Source: Microgenomates bacterium OLB22 | GTDB lineage: Bacteria > Patescibacteriota > Microgenomatia > UBA1406 > HO2-37-13b | Direction: 5' to 3' | Assembly (NCBI GenBank): GCA_001567515.1 | Contig: LLEV01000005.1 | Span: forward strand, 132,484 to 196,483 | DNA: 64,000 bases | Shown: one piece after another, positions 2,848 through 50,080 of the stretch | Layout of the letters: every line of letters begins with the position of its first letter | Numbering within the stretch: position 1 is the first letter of the stretch | Made by a program: the position numbers and the translations under genes | The notes under the pieces: generated by a model | What the model was told of the DNA's origin: nothing | The model's database searches: none | What the model saw: only the letters and a program-made list of their open reading frames with translations

Positions 2848-3848
2848 ATACGACGTCCCCAACTGAGAGCCCTTTGACAATTTCTATCTCACTTTCGGTC
2901 TCGATACCTATGGTCACATCTTGACGTTGTTTCTTCCCCTTTACTTTCTTCCAGACAAAATCACCTTTCTCGTCAGACTGCAATGCAGTTGCTGGTATAG
3001 AGATAGCATTATTTTTTGATGACAGCACAAAACGAGCGTCTCCCGTCATCCCGAGTCTTAAGTTGTCAACAAGTTCATCCTTAGAGACCTCTATAAATAC
3101 TTCGTATACGATAGAGGTTTCTCCTACTTTAGGGGCAAAAGATATGTGATGGACCTTACCCATGAGCAATTTGTCCAAAGCATCAAGGCTTATCTCGACA
3201 GCTTGTCCCTCCTTGATCTGTACTATCTCCTTTTGGTCAGCCGTAACGACAAACCGTAAAGTATCAGGATTCACGATAGCAAAACGAGCAGATGAAGGAG
3301 TGATGTTCACTCCCGCGATAGGTGACTCAACAAATGTCACGATCCCATTGATCGGACTCACTAGTCGAGAAAACTCAAGGCTCAAGGAAGTAAGCTCAAC
3401 ATCTAATACTGAGCTATCTAATGTAAATTGTGTCTTATCGAGTGCTCTCTGAAGAGCGTCGGTGATAGCCTTTCCCTCCTGGTCATCCTTCTGTTGCTCT
3501 AGATCCCAGCGTGATGACTTGTAATCATTGAGGTCTTTTTGAAGTCTCTTTTTGAGCTCTCGAGAGTCTAGCTGAGCGATAAGCTGCCCTTTCTTGACCA
3601 AGTCTCCATCTTTTACGGCTATATAGGATAGTCGGCCTGAAGTCTGGAACTGGAGTGTGACTTTTTCTGTTGCGTCTATATTACCTGCGAGGACAAGCTC
3701 TTCTTGAAGAGTGCCCTCTTTTACATCATGTGTTTTTTTCTGCCCTTGAGGCAGCGTCCGTACTTCTTTGATTATAGATATAGCCTCCGGTGGCAATAGC
3801 TGTAAGCGCGACAAGGCCAACCAGAAGAGATTTCTTTTTTAACTTCAT
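2840..3848 (-). pseudogene. HlyD/MacA-type periplasmic adaptor (efflux membrane-fusion protein), one frameshift
   Basis: ORF 2840..3820 has adaptor-like sequence. The signal/TM N-terminus MKLKKKSLLVGLVALTAIATGG starts at ATG 3846..3848 in another frame. The frames join at T7 3733..3739. Confidence 0.8.
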
Positions 3849-4081
3849 ACTTATGCTATTATATCAATACTCACAGCATTAGGAGTAGGGTCTTTTTTGA
3901 AGGTAATGTATCGGGTAGACTACTAGGAAGGGATCCCGACAACACGCAGTCTTAGTGCGTGTATTGACAGGAGGGGATAGTAAGATAGGACCGGTGAAAA
4001 GAGTATGATGGCTCGATGGTCCTGCAGAGCAGGATCTGGCTCTGCTAGACTGCAAAATAGAATATAGTCTTAGCTAAGATA

Positions 4082-4209: not shown

Positions 4210-5348
4210 CTAGTCATAGTCATTCCCATCTACACCATGTTTTTTCAGGAGAGACTCAACATGCTTTTCAAATTCCTCGACTGAATACTGTTCGGCATGA
4301 TCACGAGCGGCATGACACATTGCCCGATAATCCTTCCGGTTTAGTCTTTCAAGTTTGTTCACTTTCTCTATTACGGCATCCGGGGAGAGTTCGTGATAGT
4401 GATAACCACACACCCCATCTATGACATTTTCCTTAAGCCCCCCTGAAGCATAGACTATCACAGGCACATAGTAACCCATCGCCTCAACGGCAGATATACC
4501 GAACTCCTCATCCTGGGAGGCAAAAAGGTAGCCTTTGGCCCCACGAAATAGGCGACGAAACTCTTTATCAGGCACTCTCCCGAGGAACTCGACAGTGGGG
4601 CCCGCCATCTTTTTTAGGGCTGACAGCTCCTTGCCAACGCCTACTACTTTGAGTTGAAAACCTGCCTTGTTAGCAGCTTGGACTAGTATCTCGACATGCT
4701 TTGCCTTCTGCAGACGACACAGCGAGATGTAGTAATCCCGCTCATCTAAGGTGTCGTCGTCATACGTCACTTCTTTGACTATGTCGACAGGTGGATATAT
4801 CACCTCGCTATCACGGCGATAGTAATGCTGCAGACGCATCTTGGTCTCCTCTGAATTTGCGATGAGGATATCAGGACGGGCAGTACTAGAGAAATCCCAC
4901 ATACGTAAGAAGTGATTGATGACGTGGGCATAGATCTTGATTGGTAGGTAGCGCTGCCACTCCATAGCTGTCTCATAGTAGTATAGGTAGCGGGGCTGAT
5001 GATGGACATAGGAGAAGTGAAGGGTCGGCGGCATTGTCTTAATTCCTTTGCACATAAACCAGCCAGAGGAAGAGATCACCACATCGTATTTCGAAAAGTC
5101 AAATGACTCCCAGATGAATGGGGCCAGAAAGCGTAGAGGTGAGTAGAGTTTTTTATAAAAGGGATCCTAGCTGCCCACGATACATGGATATTCCAATCTC
5201 GATATTCTGGCGCATGCTTCTCAAGTTTCTTGCTATCATAGAATGCCGTGTAGACATCTGCATGAGGGTAGAGGCGCTTAAGAGCAAAAAAGACACGCTC
5301 AGCTCCTCCAAATTCAAATAGCTGATCATGTACGAGAGCTATATTCAT
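4210..5348 (-). pseudogene. GT4-family (GT-B) glycosyltransferase, one frameshift
   Basis: Pieces 5076..5348 (IALVHDQLFEFGGAERV) and 4210..5082 (EEFGISAVEAMG). The joining sequence KKLYSPLRFLAPFIWESFDFSKYDVVISSSGW is readable after a 1-nt shift in T6 5149..5154. Confidence 0.8.
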
Positions 5349-15492: not shown

Positions 15493-15520
15493 AGGGTAGT
15501 GTAGCATATACAATACGGCT

Positions 15521-15808
15521 ATGAAAAAGGAAAAAGACGTGTTCGAATCACTACCTGGAGTAGGAGCCCGTATTGCCCAAGACCTGAGAGATCTTGGCTA
15601 TACCGCTATTGAAGATCTAAAAGGACAGGACCCTCAAGTCATGTACGATCGTTTTTGTCAGCTCAAAGGCCATACTGTGGATAGATGCCTCCTTTACGTA
15701 TTTCGATGCATCATCTATGCTGTGTCCGAGCAGAAGACAGAAAAGCATCTGTTACAATGGTGGAATTGGTCTGATGCCAATATGAAAAAATATGGAAATA
15801 TCCGATAA
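15521..15808 (+). CDS. helix-hairpin-helix protein (Cdd1 / pathogenicity-locus-like)
   Basis: 95-aa ORF. ESLPGVGARIAQDLRDLGY is an HhH motif. Overall resemblance to the PF11731-type family. Confidence 0.55.
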   Translation: MKKEKDVFESLPGVGARIAQDLRDLGYTAIEDLKGQDPQVMYDRFCQLKGHTVDRCLLYVFRCIIYAVSEQKTEKHLLQWWNWSDANMKKYGNIR

Positions 15809-19449: not shown

Positions 19450-20214
19450 CTAGTTAAAGAAACTCTGCGAGCCGGTGGCGATTGTTGTCTGCGACGCCCG
19501 GGTGGTTGATTTCGACACGGTGCCCAGAGCCCTGCGAATCTCACTAGCACTAGAGCCTGCATTGAGCACATTGCCAGCAGGAATCCCTATCTTATTTGCA
19601 TAAGTACTGGCATCATAGCCAAAACCTACCAAGGCAATGGTATAGATCTCCTCTCGAAGGAGATCTTCGATAAGTGTTCTTAGATCACTTTCAGAATGGT
19701 ATCGAGAGTCGTTCTCTCCACCATCTGTCATGATAACGACGACTACTTTTGTGATCGTCCCGCCATTTCGTAGACTCGCACCGTATGCTACAGCACCGCT
19801 GATACCATCAAAGACTGCATCATTGAGATTGGTCATACCACCAAGAGCATATGTTGACTGAGACAAGTCAGGGACCTGATCGATAGGGAGGTAAGCATGA
19901 AGCACTTCAGTCCCGCCGTCAGAATCAAATAGAAGCGTCTGCATCATAATCTCGTCCGAGGCCTTACTAGCCTTTAGAGCTGCCAGACCCTCATTGTACG
20001 CATTGATGAGATCGTTACGGTTACCTGACATCGAACCGGTGCGGTCAATCACCCAACAGACAAGAGTAGCATGATCAGAGGGAAGTGCGTCAACCCCAAC
20101 TCCTTGTCCAAGCTGGACATGGTTCATGAGATTAGCAATGATCATCGAAGAGACTTGGGGGATAGCCCCTCGCGGGACAGCTGTGCCTGGACGATCGTGT
20201 TCGACATCTTTCAT
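19450..20214 (-). CDS. von Willebrand factor A (vWA) protein with MIDAS motif, TerY-like
   Basis: ORF 19450..20304 (GTG). ATG at 20214 is a possible start. MIDAS elements DRTGSMSG, GGMTNLNDA, VIMTDGGEND. Confidence 0.8.
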   Translation of the reverse strand: MKDVEHDRPGTAVPRGAIPQVSSMIIANLMNHVQLGQGVGVDALPSDHATLVCWVIDRTGSMSGNRNDLINAYNEGLAALKASKASDEIMMQTLLFDSDGGTEVLHAYLPIDQVPDLSQSTYALGGMTNLNDAVFDGISGAVAYGASLRNGGTITKVVVVIMTDGGENDSRYHSESDLRTLIEDLLREEIYTIALVGFGYDASTYANKIGIPAGNVLNAGSSASEIRRALGTVSKSTTRASQTTIATGSQSFFN

Positions 20215-20412
20215 CTCCTGTTTTTTGCGAGTGTGAAAAGGAAGACTCCTGGCCCCTCTCCGATAGTACGTGGAGGGGGACCAGTGAGTCTTGTGTTGTG
20301 GCACCGCAACTATCTGTATGCTTGATAGCCTACGGTACAGCGAGCAAGATTTGGCATATCCAAATCTTGTGAAGTCCTGAGTCCTGAGCTTGCCGAAGAA
20401 TCGAAGGACGAC

Positions 20413-21327
20413 CTACTTGATCGGGTCAGTCGACTGAACGAGCTGGACCCCCAAGCCCTTCATACGATTGAGCTCTGCCATCGCGATAGCTTCAAAGTCG
20501 ATACCCGGAGCTACCACGCTGCTGGTACAGTCCATGAGGAACCTTACCTTCGAAAGCATCGCCGGATCAGCACCAAAGTGCGCCACAAGCTGCTTCATCG
20601 TCTCGAGCACGCAGTGCGACTTTGCCTCACCAGCAACGTAGATCAAGTCGTTCTTAGCCAGAAGATCGAGCATTGGGACATTCATCCCCGATGCGTTCGG
20701 ATCTTCCGGATCAGGCACCATTGCGCCGAAGATACCAAAGTACTCAGTACGAGGGGTGTTCCCCTTCATAAGCTGGATCGCCTCAGAGCGCCGCCCTGCA
20801 CTATGCCATGCGATGGCTTCAGAGAGAGCAGGCATCAGAGACCAGCCAGGTGTACCGAACTCACAGTGATAGGTCCAGATCATATGAGCACCGAGAATAT
20901 TGACATAGTCCACAGACCATCGAGGATGATACAATGGACGCCACTTACCCTTGAGCACATCATCTGCAGTCATGTAGGTATATGGAGCCGGGTGATTGCC
21001 ATCGCGATCTACCCACCATCCTTCGAAGAAGATATGGTGCGTGCTGTGGGTGTCCATACTATAGAGGATAGTTGTGATGTCATCGCCATTATTGTAGATG
21101 AACTTGATGAGACGATCGACGTCCGCCTGAGATCCAGGGACCGGGAGATTTCCCGTCGGATGACAGAAATCCCACTGGTTATCCACGATGACGAGGGCCA
21201 CCTTGCGACTGGACTTATGAGCCGGAGAAAGTCCTGCGTTACGTCCGGCCTCAATGAACTCCCCAATACGCGGAGTATACATGTCAGCAAACGCATCGGA
21301 CGACTTGTAGAGAGCAGGGGTAGTCAT
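20413..21327 (-). CDS. isochorismatase-superfamily amidohydrolase, PncA-type nicotinamidase homologue with ~50-aa insertion
   Basis: ORF 20413..21375. ATG at 21327 is preceded by AAGGAG plus 6 nt. It aligns by eye to PncA: ALVIVDNQWDFCHPTGNLPVPG, DTHSTHH, WTYHC, MKGN, VAGEAKSHCV (Asp/Lys/Cys triad plus Asp/His/His metal site). Confidence 0.75.
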   Translation of the reverse strand: MTTPALYKSSDAFADMYTPRIGEFIEAGRNAGLSPAHKSSRKVALVIVDNQWDFCHPTGNLPVPGSQADVDRLIKFIYNNGDDITTILYSMDTHSTHHIFFEGWWVDRDGNHPAPYTYMTADDVLKGKWRPLYHPRWSVDYVNILGAHMIWTYHCEFGTPGWSLMPALSEAIAWHSAGRRSEAIQLMKGNTPRTEYFGIFGAMVPDPEDPNASGMNVPMLDLLAKNDLIYVAGEAKSHCVLETMKQLVAHFGADPAMLSKVRFLMDCTSSVVAPGIDFEAIAMAELNRMKGLGVQLVQSTDPIK

Positions 21328-21378
21328 GGTTTTTCTCCTTGTGACTGTCTTTTCCTCACGCCCCATTGGGCACAAGGT

Positions 21379-24030
21379 TTAGAGCTGACCGAGTTCGACA
21401 TAGCCGAGTCTGTTGCCGGACGTGATGATCAGACCTTTGCCCCAGAGCATCAGGCTGTCGCCTTCGTGTACGAGACCTTTAGTCTTTTCAAACGTCTTAC
21501 GGCTTCCAGTCTCGATCCGATCTTGGACAACACCACCATCAGTTGCATGTAGCAAGATACCACCTTGGTAGACCTGCCCATGTAACTCATCTACGACTTG
21601 ATCCGTCATCGGCTGCCATGGCGATGAATACGCCACAACACCCTTTGAGCTGACCAGATCATAGCGAATGCCCGAGATACCATTTCGCTCAATCTTCCTC
21701 CGCACTAGCACTCCATGTCGATCAAACTTTACGGACAAATCAACAAATACTTCCGTATCATCCATCTGCCCGAGGGGCAGATTGTCATACGTCGATCCCT
21801 CCCAGGACAACCACCAGATTTGACTGGAGGGCATCTGGAAAAAACCGACGAGACGCGGATCAGCGGAGCTAGGATCAGCGGTAAACCAGGTATGTTCTTC
21901 CATCACCTGGCGCACCATCGTTTCCAAATAATGCTGCCCTCGGTACTCTCCACGGAGGAGTCTACCTGCCGAGATACGATACAACGTGCTAGCATCAGTG
22001 CGAAACATCAGACGACGAGTGATGGCGAAACGTGACGTTGTGACGTCAGTGGACCACTTTCGCGTCCTCAGATTATAAAGACGTAGAGTAGTATCAGCAT
22101 CTTGGCTGACAACAAGAGTATGTTCAAAAAGTCCATACGTGACCTTCGGTGGGATAGGGAATAACTCTTGCCTTTGCAGGGGACCCTGGAGAGGGTCTCC
22201 TGTATATAGCACGGTCACTCCTCGTTCATGAGTCAGTACGTAGAGCTGTCCGCCCATGATCCGCACCAAGACGATGTCACCAGTGCTCGTGAGAATATCA
22301 CGAAAGGTGATGTCCTTCTTGAGGACGGTATGAGTGACTATCTGCTGACGTACTTGACAGACAGGGCACAGAGCCCTACTGTCCGGGACCCACGATCCAC
22401 ACTGCTTGCATTCACGCAGATGATCAGAATAGGTACGCAGCGTATCGATAGGAAAGACTTTCCGTATACCCTTTGTAAAAAACTGATCAAACACGTCCAG
22501 CATAGCAGTATCCAGCACCTCTGGCTTCATCGCAAATGCGGGAACTGTCACGCCACTGTCAAGGATGGTCACCTTGCGCAGTGCGCGGTCAGTGAGCTTC
22601 ATCAACTGTGGGTGCGTCCCACCATAAGGGTGAACGAGAAGCAAACTCCGATAGAGGAGAACTGCAAACGCGTACCAATCGTGCACTGGTAGAAATGATG
22701 GCTTTGCCTCAAGATTCATGTTATAGAGATCCGGGCATAGGTACATTTCAGTCGCGACAGGGCATGGATGCGATCCAAACTGCCAGCTGTCGACATCAAT
22801 GAACAGCATTTCCTTTCCACGAAACAACACATTGCGCTCATTTAAGTCACCAACAACCAAACCAGATGAATGGACGGGCTGTAAGACCTTTCCACCATCA
22901 AGAAAAACAGTCGTGACTTCTTTATTTGTCACACCATGCGTAGTCCGATACTTGCGATTAGCAAATGCTGCAACTTCCTCAAAACCACTTCCCAGATAGG
23001 GCATCGTGAGACCGATTATCTTTCTCCCCCCACTGTCATAGACAGCCTCAAGAGGAAGAGCGATGCGATCTGTCGGAAGCGCCCATCTGTGACTTAAGAA
23101 ATCACGAACCTTGGAACTCCGCTCTGCCGTAGGCTTGTGATACACCTTTACGGCGACATCACCCCTAGGCAATCTCAACCGATACACTGAGCCTTCACCG
23201 CCACTCCCAATGAGAGCACTGTCAGCTAGTGTATAAGCTATACCTCCGATAGTCACTCTCTTCATGAGTGCTCCTGTCCCCCGAGATCCTCCCAGGTGAT
23301 TATCGAAACGTCGTCTGAAAAAACGACGATTATTGTTTGACTGCGCATTGAGGAACCGCTGAAGTCCAGCGACATGCTCATGTCCCCAGATATCTGTAAG
23401 TAGTGATTGTTCATGATGCCAAGCATCTGTCCCGATAGCTACCTGTCCAACAGCGAACGTAGCACGATCGATGAGAAGCACTTCAAATCCTTGAGGTAGG
23501 TCCTCGGTCAACGTCAAGTAGCTCTTTTCGATACAATGATAGGCAGGATAGGGGGGCGTGTTGTTGTAGTCTAAGATGCGTACATCCTTGCCGATTACGA
23601 TAACCCCATCCCCGATGCTAAAGAACAAGATTGTGCGCTCGGTTACGATCATCCCTACGACTGTGAAGAGAAAATAGTTTGCGATCAGTTGAGCTTTAGA
23701 GGGTCCATCAAGCTGGTATTCGTCGATAGTTCGCCGAAGCCACCCGATAAGCTGTTCCCATAGGAGCACGGGGATCAGTGAAATCTCGGTATCTCTCTCA
23801 AGTAGTTGCCTGACAGCTTGCACCACGTAAGGCGCAGCAGCTCGTGCTCCCACTTCAGAGTATCTGCCTGAGTTCTTATCACCTCCCGAACATCCATCAC
23901 ATAATACGCCTATCATAACCTCCTCACTTTTGATCAGACCATGTAAGACAGCTAGGCCGTCCTGGCAGTTTCGATTGTAAAGGAGGTGATCTCGTCCAAC
24001 ATGCTGTCCTGTGCGAATCCGCCAGGGCAT
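21379..24030 (-). CDS. fused PP2C-type phosphatase / Ser-Thr protein kinase / zinc ribbon / C-terminal beta-rich module (883 aa)
   Basis: aa 1-235 are PP2C_2-like (GQHVGRDHLLYNRNCQDG, CDGCSGG, GDG, GTDA). aa ~258-470 are the kinase core (IGSGGEGSVY, VAVK, GDLNERN, IDVD). CxxC-x10-CxxC at aa 541-558 (nt 22357..22410). aa 565-883 are beta-rich. Confidence 0.85.
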   Translation of the reverse strand: MPWRIRTGQHVGRDHLLYNRNCQDGLAVLHGLIKSEEVMIGVLCDGCSGGDKNSGRYSEVGARAAAPYVVQAVRQLLERDTEISLIPVLLWEQLIGWLRRTIDEYQLDGPSKAQLIANYFLFTVVGMIVTERTILFFSIGDGVIVIGKDVRILDYNNTPPYPAYHCIEKSYLTLTEDLPQGFEVLLIDRATFAVGQVAIGTDAWHHEQSLLTDIWGHEHVAGLQRFLNAQSNNNRRFFRRRFDNHLGGSRGTGALMKRVTIGGIAYTLADSALIGSGGEGSVYRLRLPRGDVAVKVYHKPTAERSSKVRDFLSHRWALPTDRIALPLEAVYDSGGRKIIGLTMPYLGSGFEEVAAFANRKYRTTHGVTNKEVTTVFLDGGKVLQPVHSSGLVVGDLNERNVLFRGKEMLFIDVDSWQFGSHPCPVATEMYLCPDLYNMNLEAKPSFLPVHDWYAFAVLLYRSLLLVHPYGGTHPQLMKLTDRALRKVTILDSGVTVPAFAMKPEVLDTAMLDVFDQFFTKGIRKVFPIDTLRTYSDHLRECKQCGSWVPDSRALCPVCQVRQQIVTHTVLKKDITFRDILTSTGDIVLVRIMGGQLYVLTHERGVTVLYTGDPLQGPLQRQELFPIPPKVTYGLFEHTLVVSQDADTTLRLYNLRTRKWSTDVTTSRFAITRRLMFRTDASTLYRISAGRLLRGEYRGQHYLETMVRQVMEEHTWFTADPSSADPRLVGFFQMPSSQIWWLSWEGSTYDNLPLGQMDDTEVFVDLSVKFDRHGVLVRRKIERNGISGIRYDLVSSKGVVAYSSPWQPMTDQVVDELHGQVYQGGILLHATDGGVVQDRIETGSRKTFEKTKGLVHEGDSLMLWGKGLIITSGNRLGYVELGQL

Positions 24031-24145
24031 CTCGTTACTCCTTTTGGTCTTTCGGCTACAAGAGATGAAATTTATGAAACCTATAATCTGATTGTCAACG
24101 AACCTTACTTAATGTTATATACACACTAAGTAACGATGATGCCAT

Positions 24146-24174
24146 AGTATAACTCATAAAACAGCACTTGTCAA
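24146..24174 (-). promoter_or_regulatory. sigma70-type promoter of the kinase operon (TTGACA-17-TATACT)
   Basis: Minus strand: -35 TTGACA = plus 24169..24174; -10 TATACT = plus 24146..24151; 17-nt spacer. Confidence 0.6.
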
Positions 24175-24195
24175 TAGTGTAATTATGACACTATT
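24173..24195. promoter_or_regulatory. perfect 8-7-8 palindrome, candidate NrtR operator
   Basis: AATAGTGT-AATTATG-ACACTATT. It contains a GT-N7-AC core, overlaps the -35 box, and abuts the corrected nrtR stop (24196..24198). Confidence 0.55.
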
Positions 24196-24862
24196 TTAGA
24201 GGACCTCGAGAAATTGGGGAGATCGAGAAGTAAATCTATAGAGCTTTGGAGGGCGATGTTGCTTACCCTCTCTTCGTTTGCCAGTATCTGTGACGAGTTT
24301 TTGCAGGAGTATTTTTTTTTATAAAGTTGCGCTTATCAAGCTTCCTGTCAAGAACAGACTCATAGCATGTGAGCAGTTCCGCTAGTGTGAATTCTTTGGG
24401 TAGCAATCCATACGCGATATTGGTATAGGATAGCTTCCCTTTCAAGCGCTCAACCGCATACGCGATAATTTTCTCGTGATCATACGCCATCTTGGGCAAG
24501 GCGTCCACAAAGAACCACTTGGCAGTGGGGGCTATCCTGTCAGCCTCTGTCTCAGGGATAAGGGCCATATAGGCTATGGCAACCACTCTACCGCGTGGAT
24601 CTCTATCAATGGCGCTGAAGGTATGGAGCTGTTCGCTATAGGCAACTGACTTGATACCACCCTTTACCGATAGATGTCGTACCACAGCATCTTCCGCTGT
24701 CTCATCTGGAGCAATCAGGCCACCTGGAAGACCACGACAATCTAGAAAATGCGGAGGGATAGTAACTGGGATACAAAGCACGTGAAGACGCCCCTCCCTA
24801 AAGGTAAATAACACGGTATCAACTGCTACGATAGCAAATTGAAGTGTCTTGGGGTCTGCCAT
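24196..24862 (-). pseudogene. nrtR: NrtR-like Nudix-related transcriptional regulator (degenerate Nudix + C-terminal wHTH), frameshift in T9 run
   Basis: ORF 24263..24886 (TTG). ATG at 24862 (MADPKTLQF). The Nudix box is degenerate (RHLSVKGG). After T9 24312..24320 the alternative frame reads KKILLQKLVTDTGKRREGKQHRPPKLYRF..., typical of an NrtR C-terminus. Confidence 0.7.
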
Positions 24863-24942
24863 ATACTGTCTATTATACAAGAACAATTCTAAGACTACAA
24901 AGAAAGATTGTAAGATCCAAGCAAGAAAAGTATACTACGTTC

Positions 24943-25653
24943 ATGGATAATACAAATCAAACAGCCAATGACATCCATCATCTAGCAGAAAAGGCCCGTG
25001 AAGAGAAGCGTTTTGTTGAGGCCCTGGTGCTTTCAGATGAGGCGCTCATCAAATACGTAGAGGAAGGAAACGTGGTAGGATCTGCAGAAATACAAGCCTC
25101 TAGATCAATTACCTTTAGACTACTTTCCCAAGAAACCGAAAATTTCGTGTATCTAATATTGGCAAAGTTTGCGGCGATGGCCAGCGTGGAGATATCTCGA
25201 GGACTTGCGGATAAGAGTGCTCTTGCCCTACCGCTCCTAAATCTTGGTAAGGTCCAAGTAGCTCTAAAACAATTGACTGATGCCGTAAGTTCCTTTGAAG
25301 AAGTAGTCGAGATCATGAAGAACACTCCCCCAGCTTGGCATAATCGCCCAGGTGTTTTAGCTGATATAGAGATCCATCTCCACGGAGCAGAACTACAAGC
25401 AGGGGATCTTTCTGCTAAGGAAAGACTACTTAGTGCAATCAGGGACTTAGAATCATCTGACGAGGATGGCTATAACAAAGCAGTCTGGGTCTCTGGTGGC
25501 TACATGCGCCTAGCCGAAGGGCTTGCCCCCTCTGATCCTACTGCAGCAAAAGAGTATCTACAAAAGGCTAAAGAAGTCATTGATGGGGATCGGCGTCTCG
25601 TGATCAGGAAACAGCAATGGACTAAACTCTCTAACGCCCTACACCTTAGCTAA
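24943..25653 (+). CDS. alpha-helical repeat (TPR-like) protein, unknown function
   Basis: ORF 24844..25653. ATG at 24943 lies 6 nt after TATACT (24931..24936), which pairs with TTGTAA (24908..24913) over a 17-nt spacer. Confidence 0.55.
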   Translation: MDNTNQTANDIHHLAEKAREEKRFVEALVLSDEALIKYVEEGNVVGSAEIQASRSITFRLLSQETENFVYLILAKFAAMASVEISRGLADKSALALPLLNLGKVQVALKQLTDAVSSFEEVVEIMKNTPPAWHNRPGVLADIEIHLHGAELQAGDLSAKERLLSAIRDLESSDEDGYNKAVWVSGGYMRLAEGLAPSDPTAAKEYLQKAKEVIDGDRRLVIRKQQWTKLSNALHLS

Positions 25654-33907: not shown

Positions 33908-34290
33908 TGGGTGTTGCTGGATATTCAATTGTAGGTCCTCAGGGTAATCTGCTTGGACAAATATCGATTGTACAGTTTGCGGGGGATGGTGCTCAACCAG
34001 TAGACCAGAGCTACGCAAGAGGGTGGGTGCTTAACCTCAGTGGAAATCCTGCAATAGAAGGACACCCACTTGGTTGGCAGTACTTTGATACGAGAGATCA
34101 TATCCCCAGCTTTGGGATATGGCCCAATGTCCGTATTTGTGTAGAATTTGTAGTAACCGATGAGGAACTAATTCAAGTAAACGCAGACAGGTCTAAGCTT
34201 CGTGATCTAGCAAGGTTCTTTATTCCATTTATCAGTGATTATGAACCTCCAGAGGTTCTTGCCAGACAGCTCATACCGGATATGACGTAA
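33907..34290 (+). CDS. orphan protein (127 aa)
   Basis: ORF track. The same frame stays open upstream to 33775 without a start codon, so a frameshifted longer gene is an alternative. The terminator hairpin at 34275..34309 overlaps the stop. Confidence 0.5.
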   Translation: MGVAGYSIVGPQGNLLGQISIVQFAGDGAQPVDQSYARGWVLNLSGNPAIEGHPLGWQYFDTRDHIPSFGIWPNVRICVEFVVTDEELIQVNADRSKLRDLARFFIPFISDYEPPEVLARQLIPDMT

Positions 34291-49577: not shown

Positions 49578-49865
49578 ATGGATATTGAGGTTATCAGAGG
49601 TCTGGCAGGGACTGTCATCATAATTAGCGTTATTCTCTCTACTTATCTGAATTGTCAGGTCAATAAAGGTAAACTGGTGTTTACAAGGGAGATCAAGCAT
49701 GCTCAGATCGGACTCTGGTCACTTAACTTTGTTCTTGATCTTTTAGGTCCGTGGCACGTATTGCATATTGCAGCAACAATAGCAGCCTGCCTAGGTATAG
49801 TTCTTTTTTCATACATGCCCGTGGAGGAAACATCAAGTTCCTCTAGTTCACACAGCCACCAGTGA
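49578..49865 (+). CDS. small membrane protein (95 aa)
   Basis: ORF track. The terminator AGCCACC-loop-GGTGGCT + T6 at 49854..49881 overlaps the stop. Confidence 0.5.
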   Translation: MDIEVIRGLAGTVIIISVILSTYLNCQVNKGKLVFTREIKHAQIGLWSLNFVLDLLGPWHVLHIAATIAACLGIVLFSYMPVEETSSSSSSHSHQ

Positions 49866-50080
49866 TAATGGTGGCTTTTTTGAAGCCCTGCCTTTGGCAA
49901 GACTGAAATCCTTACCGAAGTCCTGATTCTTGAGTATGTCGAAGGATCGAAGGACGAAGTGGGATCTTGACACCCCACTCCTACTATGTGTACTCAGCAC
50001 ACCTCCCTGGTGAGGAAAGAAACTGCTGACATAATACCAACCCCCGGGGTTGATTTAAGTAAAAACCTCGGCATACACAT

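Follow-up and report, generated by a model that had tools for sequence, protein, structure and literature searches.

We analysed a window of 64,000 nucleotides (64 kb; "the window" throughout means this whole stretch) from Microgenomates bacterium OLB22 (contig LLEV01000005.1, positions 132,484 to 196,483), a candidate-phyla-radiation genome recovered from an anammox reactor (PMC4821891), and focused on a palindrome at positions 24173-24195, which lies between the gene for an NrtR-family regulator (nrtR) and a cassette of co-directional genes for a PP2C-like phosphatase, a zinc-ribbon kinase, a nicotinamidase-like protein and a vWA protein. The palindrome, O1, and a second copy of its motif, O2, flank the predicted promoter of the cassette, and we judge, with a probability of roughly 85%, that O1 is one of two operators of the NrtR-family repressor encoded immediately upstream. 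The genes and features on which this reading turns are as follows:

24862-24196, minus strand: nrtR after frame correction, identified from Pfam and open reading frame (ORF) translations
24195-24031: intergenic region between nrtR and the PP2C gene, 165 bp
24173-24195: putative operator O1, AATAGTGT-N7-ACACTATT, with the core TAGTGT-N7-ACACTA at 24175-24193
24146-24174, minus strand: predicted promoter P1, with TTGACA at 24174-24169, a 17-nt spacer and TATACT at 24151-24146
24105-24133: putative operator O2, reading TTACTTAGTGT-gtatata-ACATTAAGTAA in gene orientation, with 11-bp arms and one mismatch
24030-21379, minus strand: 883-aa ORF with PP2C_2 and kinase-like domains
23262-24030, minus strand: PP2C-like phosphatase, first cassette gene (Pfam PP2C_2 above threshold)
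21379-23265, minus strand: Ser/Thr-kinase-like protein; carries a CxxC...CxxC zinc ribbon and, C-terminally, ~330 aa forming a domain without an assigned fold
20413-21375, minus strand: 320-aa ORF for a divergent nicotinamidase-like (PncA-type) cysteine hydrolase
19450-20304, minus strand: vWA (TerY-like) ORF, last cassette gene (VWA match weak)

The sequence of O1, AATAGTGTAATTATGACACTATT, resolves into AATAGTGT-AATTATG-ACACTATT, that is, two perfectly complementary 8-bp arms around a 7-nt spacer. The original prediction had described a perfect 23-bp palindrome with a GT-N7-AC core; the arms, the spacing and the core hold, but perfection over the full length does not, as a repeat search returns 11-nt arms matching at 91%, with one A/G mismatch in the spacer (positions 9/15), and the spacer symmetry is lost in orthologues. 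It had also noted that published NrtR operators are palindromes of about 21 bp sharing this core, and a 21-bp symmetry with a GT-N7-AC core is indeed what Rodionov et al. 2008 state (PMC2330246) and what O1 presents; the mycobacterial NrtR site is likewise 8-N7-8 (PMC6800001). On one side O1 abuts the frame-corrected nrtR stop codon (24196-24198), and on the other it shares 2 bp (24173-24174) with the minus-strand -35 hexamer TTGACA (24169-24174), an overlap that had been correctly noted from the start.

As a bare inverted repeat O1 would attract little attention. The window contains five perfect 8-N7-8 inverted repeats against 0.93 expected, and at least one occurs in 63% of simulated windows; the expected number with a GT core is 0.06 per window. 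Because the bare 8-N7-8 repeat is not rare, the significance of O1 rests on comparative evidence. Three more perfect 8-N7-8 repeats (19644-19666, 34099-34121 and 49854-49876) are unrelated in sequence to the NrtR motif. A search with the full 23-bp pattern, allowing three mismatches, returned O1 as its sole match and missed O2, and it is uninformative, since one or more matches also turned up in 27 of 100 shuffles.

A weight matrix derived from other loci, built without the window and its close orthologues, scores O1 at 25.4 bits and O2, whose centre lies 65 bp downstream of that of O1 and which the original prediction had not listed, at 20.2 bits; these two are the only matches above 15 bits in the whole window. 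The intervening promoter P1 matches 11 of 12 consensus positions, and we infer a transcription start near 24139, ~7 nt past the -10 hexamer, which would place O2 at about +7 to +35. O1 thus lies beside nrtR on the predicted -35 and O2 past the inferred start, a placement that matches those of NrtR repressors in PMC2330246 and would suit, as initially suggested, a repressor that blocks RNA polymerase. A further promoter candidate, P2 (TTGACA at 24098-24093, 18 nt, TAAATT), was not relied on: its -10 is not kept in orthologues, where it reads TAGAAA after a 1-nt indel.

The putative repressor combines an N-terminal Nudix-like domain with a C-terminal winged helix (Pfam NUDIX and NrtR_WHD). Frame-corrected, it gives full-length matches to its closest solved homologue, BtAraR (5bs6; 1.6e-33, residues 12-214), and to NrtR of Shewanella (3gz5/3gz6; 3.5e-24). 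The Nudix box, read from the sequence as G48-x5-E54-x7-R62-H-L-S-V-K, is degenerate, with RHLSVK in place of REUXEE, so the domain would serve as a ligand sensor and not as an enzyme. In the BtAraR structure the DNA-bound dimer covers 25 bp, the crystallised operator, GCAAAAGTGT-TACTTTT-ACACCCATGC, is GTGT-N7-ACAC, and K179, R180, N181 and K184 of helix α6, together with K204 and R205 of the wing, 'define the GTGT motif' (PMC4666351). In the window protein, D176-K177-R178-N179-F180-I181-K182 and R203 are invariant or nearly so within the clade, and D176, K177, R178, N179, K182 and R203 align with BtAraR D178, K179, R180, N181, K184 and R205. Since the residues that read GTGT in BtAraR are kept, the operator core and its predicted reading residues correspond.

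Conservation of the two sites was followed among both close and distant relatives. When genome contigs were scanned with NrtR, no close orthologue turned up, the matches being five distant relatives at 33-48% identity; a search for homologous proteins, traced to their encoding contigs, provided two loci, L006 and L007, with intact 221-aa NrtR orthologues (P0001 and P0002, 86% and 83% identical, respectively) and the same PP2C gene next. In both, the O1 arms AATAGTGT and ACACTATT are unchanged around a different spacer (CATAATT in the window, TAAAAAT in both orthologues), the O2 arms are likewise conserved (spacer gtatata in the window vs caaaaaa), and the -35 and -10 hexamers of P1 are unchanged across 17 diverged nucleotides. 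Such a pattern, in which the arms stay fixed and the spacer is free to vary, is the mark of a protein that binds DNA as a dimer.

The distant loci, 80 in all, come from metagenomes scanned with aligned NrtR homologues as the query; their NrtR is 42-54% identical and their intergenic DNA is not alignable. In a sequence-agnostic search for 7-N7-7 palindromes with at most one arm mismatch, those with a GT..AC core occur at 0.81/kb within 350 bp of nrtR vs 0.07/kb elsewhere (87 nrtR loci), and nearly all of the palindromes found read (A/T)TAGTGT-N7-ACACTA(A/T). Searched directly with at most one mismatch, TAGTGT-N7-ACACTA gives 82 matches in 572 kb vs 1.7 in block shuffles (maximum 6); 77 of the 82 are intergenic, in a set where the intergenic share of the sequence is 11%, and at least one is present in 57 of the 88 sources that carry nrtR homologues. 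The symmetrised clade consensus is TTAGTGTa-N5-tACACTAA, with ~2 bits per position at GTGT/ACAC. Absence of the motif from orthologous loci and elsewhere had been named as the outcome that would speak against an operator; instead, the motif is kept in L006 and L007, is enriched beside metagenomic nrtR homologues and recurs across the regulon of the NrtR clade. That regulon, taken as the genes that start within 300 bp of a site and clustered, comprises:

nrtR itself (a cluster that includes Nudix paralogues), n = 33, in many loci
PP2C gene, n = 15 (L009, L011, L013, L015, L018, L022, L023 and others)
NAD kinase (nadK), n = 3 (L046, L067, L069)
ribose-phosphate pyrophosphokinase (prs), n = 2 (L019, L057)
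nicotinate phosphoribosyltransferase (pncB, NAPRTase), n = 2 (L069, L085)
Nudix/NadM-like protein, n = 2 (L017, L037)
PnuC transporter, n = 1 (L021)
NadB-like flavoprotein, n = 1 (L040)
NAD synthetase (nadE), n = 1 (L046)

The NAD-gene assignments were confirmed by Pfam with one representative per family, and the same set of NAD genes makes up the classical NrtR regulon (Table 1 of PMC2330246). The targets expected at the outset, of the pncA, pncB and prs type, are thereby accounted for by pncB, prs, nadE, nadK and pnuC in the relatives and by the pncA-type gene in the operon of the window; a tblastn search of the 64-kb window found no classical NAD biosynthesis genes.

Downstream of O1 and O2, the cassette proteins differ in how readily they are assigned. 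The Pkinase match of the window kinase reaches 22 bits vs a Pfam threshold of 31.7 (that of its L091 orthologue stands unmarked), and its zinc ribbon, 'CKQCGSWVPDSRALCPVC', is seen in the translation. The vWA protein scores 17.8 bits (E = 0.0042) with Pfam VWA vs a threshold of 23.8; comparison with L006 puts the true gene start probably near 20220, and a vWA gene occupies the same cassette position in L006, L056, L088, L089 and L091. As a single sequence, the 320-aa protein has no Pfam match, negative or marginal NCBIfam results and weak nicotinamidase matches, and its homologues are named 'nicotinamidase/pyrazinamidase' in their sources. A profile of its family (27 members) matches nicotinamidases at 3.4e-12 to 1.9e-5, among them yeast Pnc1 (2h0r, 3.4e-12), the P. 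horikoshii enzyme (1ilw, 1.3e-7) and Mycobacterium tuberculosis PncA (3pl1, 2.4e-6), and D65, D69, D108, H110, K204 and C255, comprising the catalytic Asp/Lys/Cys and the Asp/His metal ligands, are invariant. The protein is ~100 aa longer than canonical PncA; by its predicted cysteine-hydrolase fold, triad and metal site it is a member of the nicotinamidase (PncA) family.

The succession nrtR, PP2C, kinase and 320-aa gene is found again in L009 and L011-L015, with partial versions in L022, L023 and L070, and nrtR stands directly before the 320-aa gene in L030, L031, L041, L053, L062 and L056. The cassette gene order is kept in at least 10 loci, with one or two strong sites in every nrtR-PP2C spacer examined. 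PADLOC returned only weak kinase matches in the window, and the cassette is therefore not a catalogued defence system. Between its nicotinamidase-like and vWA genes, a 10-N5-10 palindrome, CAAGATTTGG-ATATG-CCAAATCTTG (20344-20368), is identical, loop included, in L006 (6078-6102) and could be an RNA hairpin or the site of another protein.

An independent test of the coupling between cassette and motif is provided by six contexts that were retrieved via homologues of the nicotinamidase-like protein and not via nrtR:

L088, Ktedonospora formicarum (Chloroflexota): sites of 26.3 and 25.7 bits at 4213-4332; no nrtR within ±7 kb
L091/L092: sites of 25.5 and 20.1 bits, in L091 at 4264-4330; no nrtR within ±7 kb
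L093: sites of 24.6 and 21.0 bits at 3223-3284; no nrtR within ±6 kb
L094: one site of 20.4 bits and, before nrtR, another of 9.1 bits, the pattern seen in the window; nrtR adjacent
L089/L090: cassette without a site (best 6.3 bits); no nrtR within ±7 kb
L095: stand-alone gene without cassette or site; no nrtR within ±6 kb

Five of the six contexts hold the complete four-gene cassette, and four of these five have sites of 20-26 bits directly upstream of PP2C; three of the four site-bearing cassettes (L088, L091 and L093) carry a pair of sites and no nrtR in the fetched 6-7 kb flank. In L093 and L094 a TTGACA lies inside the operator spacer. The cassette is also present outside the candidate phyla radiation, as the Ktedonospora formicarum locus exemplifies.

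Drawing on these data, we propose a model in which an NrtR dimer would insert its two recognition helices into successive major grooves, reading GTGT and ACAC 7 bp apart, and its wings would touch the TA-rich minor groove at the flanks, so that ~25 bp would be covered. On O1, the predicted footprint (24172-24196) would reach from the DNA immediately upstream of the -35 hexamer onto its upstream edge, and a bound dimer would exclude RNA polymerase from this region; on O2, a footprint of roughly +9 to +33 would prevent the polymerase from escaping the promoter and would also stop read-through from nrtR. The Nudix domain, which is catalytically dead, would then bind a ligand, most probably ADP-ribose or a related product of NAD breakdown, and this would release the repressor and derepress the cassette, a step that we propose because of the characterised family members and the NAD-gene content of the clade's regulon.

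Several observations weigh against the assignment of O1 and O2 as NrtR operators. The deposited nrtR shifts frame immediately past the codons of the recognition helix, and the wing would be lost; P1 and its transcription start are consensus predictions only; and BtAraR, the closest solved relative, responds to arabinose and not to ADP-ribose. One cassette lineage (L089/L090) has no site upstream of PP2C, and three cassette loci have no nrtR within the fetched 6-7 kb flank. Finally, most comparison loci were chosen for nrtR, and the co-occurrence of motif and regulator is thus partly built in, a bias mitigated by the further loci chosen via the nicotinamidase-like gene.

The frameshift underlies a first alternative, in which the operators are genuine and nrtR is a pseudogene, its wing lost, the palindromes unoccupied relics and the cassette constitutive. 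Relative to both orthologues, an extra A in an A9 run (24312-24320) truncates the assembled product to 199 aa directly after K183, and the NCBI record annotates the same 199-aa protein; in three-frame translation the ORF breaks after ...LDKRNFIKK. It resumes in another frame, however, as ILLQKLVTDTGKRREGKQHRPPKLYRFTSRSPQFLEVL followed by a stop codon at 24198-24196, so that the sequence past the indel is intact and family-like: removing one A yields a protein of 221 aa, alignable at its C-terminus with the entire family, and restores the stop codon given in the original prediction. O1 and O2 are both undegraded. Moreover, a second +1 insertion relative to both orthologues, an extra T in a T6 run (23318-23323; T5 there), lies ~1 kb away and merges the PP2C and kinase genes into the 883-aa ORF; in L006, L007 and every distant locus the two genes are separate and overlap by ATGA. 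As the OLB genomes were sequenced by IonTorrent PGM only and their authors report and corrected 'persistent frameshifts' (PMC4821891), both homopolymer indels are most likely residual sequencing errors, and we consider a pseudogene improbable.

Less probable still is that another transcription factor, for example a NadQ-like winged-helix regulator, occupies the sites and that the adjacency of nrtR is coincidental. The operator pairs without a neighbouring nrtR in the fetched flanks of L088, L091 and L093 would fit such a factor, as would the C-terminal domain type that NadQ shares with the window protein (7q91 match, 2.6e-14). Yet the motif lies directly beside nrtR in dozens of unrelated loci, it is the exact GTGT-N7-ACAC of an NrtR-family crystal structure whose reading residues are conserved here, and no different regulator gene is consistently nearby. 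An RNA hairpin that would end the nrtR transcript as an intrinsic terminator, or stabilise its 3' end, can be all but discounted: the inverted repeat does begin one base past the nrtR stop codon, and conserved arms around a variable loop would also suit a hairpin, but the stem is AT-rich and not G+C-rich as in an intrinsic terminator, no U tract follows, a terminator scan did not call it, the fold is weak and absent from the minimum-free-energy structure of the window sequence (z-score -1.9), the arm sequence itself is conserved across 75 sites (~2 bits per position at GTGT) and shows no compensatory changes, and the motif occurs before genes in either orientation and inside promoters, as with the spacer TTGACA of L093 and L094. 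NrtR operators at O1 and O2 are thus the reading that we retain.

Beyond O1 and O2, the window contains weaker candidate sites and a divergent gene upstream of nrtR:

24943, divergent from nrtR: start of a TPR gene
24864-24882: weak candidate operator O3, TACTGT-CTATTAT-ACAAGA, or TCTTGT-ataatag-ACAGTA in gene orientation
15497-15515: further weak site, TAGTGT-agcatat-ACAATA, 8.5 bits, inside the null range (matrix match 15493-15519)

O3 is the weaker site that the original prediction had placed over the TATAAT in front of nrtR, and it is indeed found there: it overlaps the minus-strand hexamer (24877-24872), ends 1 nt before the nrtR ATG and, at 9.0 bits, is the third-best match in the 64-kb window. 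Its equivalents in L006 and L007 score 11.4 and 8.5 bits. The expected number of matches of at least 9 bits in the 90-bp region upstream of nrtR is ~0.0005 by chance; window-wide, the scores of O3 and of the 15497 site are not significant, as random 64-kb sequences reach 2.7-13 bits. We regard O3 as a suggestive candidate operator, and this degenerate third site, lying on the nrtR promoter, may let the repressor mildly regulate its own gene. The initial idea of autoregulation is thus weakly supported in this lineage by sites of 9.0, 11.4 and 8.5 bits, and strongly in relatives, in which 33 nrtR genes or Nudix paralogues are flanked by sites. The site at 15497-15515 lies 6 nt upstream of a 95-aa gene of the Cdd1-type helix-hairpin-helix family (15521-15808; PF11731), and its ACAATA half-site variant is also found beside nrtR in L024, L026, L027 and L040; it is a possible further NrtR site.

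The predicted transcripts around nrtR show some features of their own. The TPR gene ATG (24943; region 24931-24945) follows a TATACT by 6 nt, with identical spacing in L007 (655-680), and the nrtR ATG follows its TATAAT by 9 nt (24862-24877); a Shine-Dalgarno sequence is absent before both, and the two transcripts look leaderless or near-leaderless. The PP2C gene, by contrast, has a long leader with AAAGGAG. Within this leader, a block GGTTCGTTGACAATCAGATTATAGGTTT (24077-24104), where the P2 candidate was also called, is kept in L006 and L007, with a similar GGTTCTTTGACAA in the distant L009 (~1150-1170), and in some distant loci the PP2C leader ends in a terminator-like hairpin and T run, for example agccctgctcaaaaacgagcagggttttcttgt (L013 ~4790-4834; L014 ~3900-3950), which hints at additional attenuation-type control before PP2C there. 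An Rfam scan of the leader and ten related loci returned a single tRNA and no known riboswitch or RNA family.

TerY-P-like modules are linked to stress and anti-phage functions, and placing a TerY-P-like cassette under a repressor of the NAD/ADP-ribose type suggests a specific inducing signal. We accordingly advance, as a tentative and on balance doubtful extension, that NrtR, beyond NAD supply, also controls the four-gene cassette through the paired TAGTGT-N7-ACACTA sites and that the cassette is a TerY-P-type phospho-switch induced by accumulating ADP-ribose. Were this so, ADP-ribose could build up, for example, where toxins, ADP-ribosyltransferases or anti-phage NADases have cleaved NAD, and a stress or defence response would be coupled to nicotinamide recycling. 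Candidate-phyla-radiation bacteria cannot be grown alone and, to our knowledge, very little is known of their transcriptional regulation; the present analysis provides a concrete, predicted regulator-operator pair for them, with a clade-wide consensus, and a first regulatory context for a widespread, uncharacterised PP2C-kinase-nicotinamidase-like-vWA cassette.

Compared with known systems, O1 and O2 resemble the NrtR operators of NAD regulons in being 21-23-bp palindromes with a GT-N7-AC core and, as in mycobacteria, an 8-N7-8 layout, and in lying over or just past a promoter beside nrtR; the regulator itself shares with published NrtR proteins the Nudix-like domain, the winged helix and a clade-wide regulon that includes pncB, prs, nadE, pnuC and nadK. 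Unlike the operators published for Shewanella, Synechocystis and Mycobacterium, the arms here are the lineage-specific TAGTGT/ACACTA, the predicted target in the window is not a plain NAD biosynthesis operon and instead joins phosphatase, kinase and vWA genes to a nicotinamidase-like gene, and the host is a candidate-phyla-radiation bacterium, a group with which NrtR was not found paired in the literature that we searched. The likeness to BtAraR (5bs6/5dd4/5ddg/5deq) extends from the GTGT-N7-ACAC core to the K, R, N and K of the DKRNFxK helix and the wing arginine, and to the tandem arrangement, as two BtAraR dimers bind at the BT0356 promoter. AraR, in contrast, senses L-arabinose and controls sugar catabolism, and because the clade regulon here is NAD-related, a different effector is to be expected.

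The cassette, in turn, parallels the TerY-P triad of a vWA protein, a PP2C phosphatase and a Ser/Thr kinase with a zinc ribbon (Anantharaman 2012, as summarised in PMC11090510), having a PP2C_2 phosphatase, a kinase with a CxxC...CxxC zinc ribbon and a vWA protein, a likeness limited by the below-threshold Pfam scores of the window kinase and vWA protein and by the weak PADLOC kinase matches. Relative to the triad, it differs in the nicotinamidase-like gene set between the kinase and vWA genes, in the extra C-terminal domain of ~330 aa on the kinase, in the predicted NrtR-type operators that precede it and in having no tellurite-resistance or restriction genes adjacent. The coupling of NrtR operators to a TerY-P-like cassette is apparently not described in the literature searched. 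Operators of this class, their geometry and the way they act are already published, and in this respect the operator result is confirmatory; what appears new is the lineage-specific consensus, its occurrence in candidate-phyla-radiation genomes and its conserved coupling to a TerY-P-like cassette that includes a nicotinamidase-like gene.

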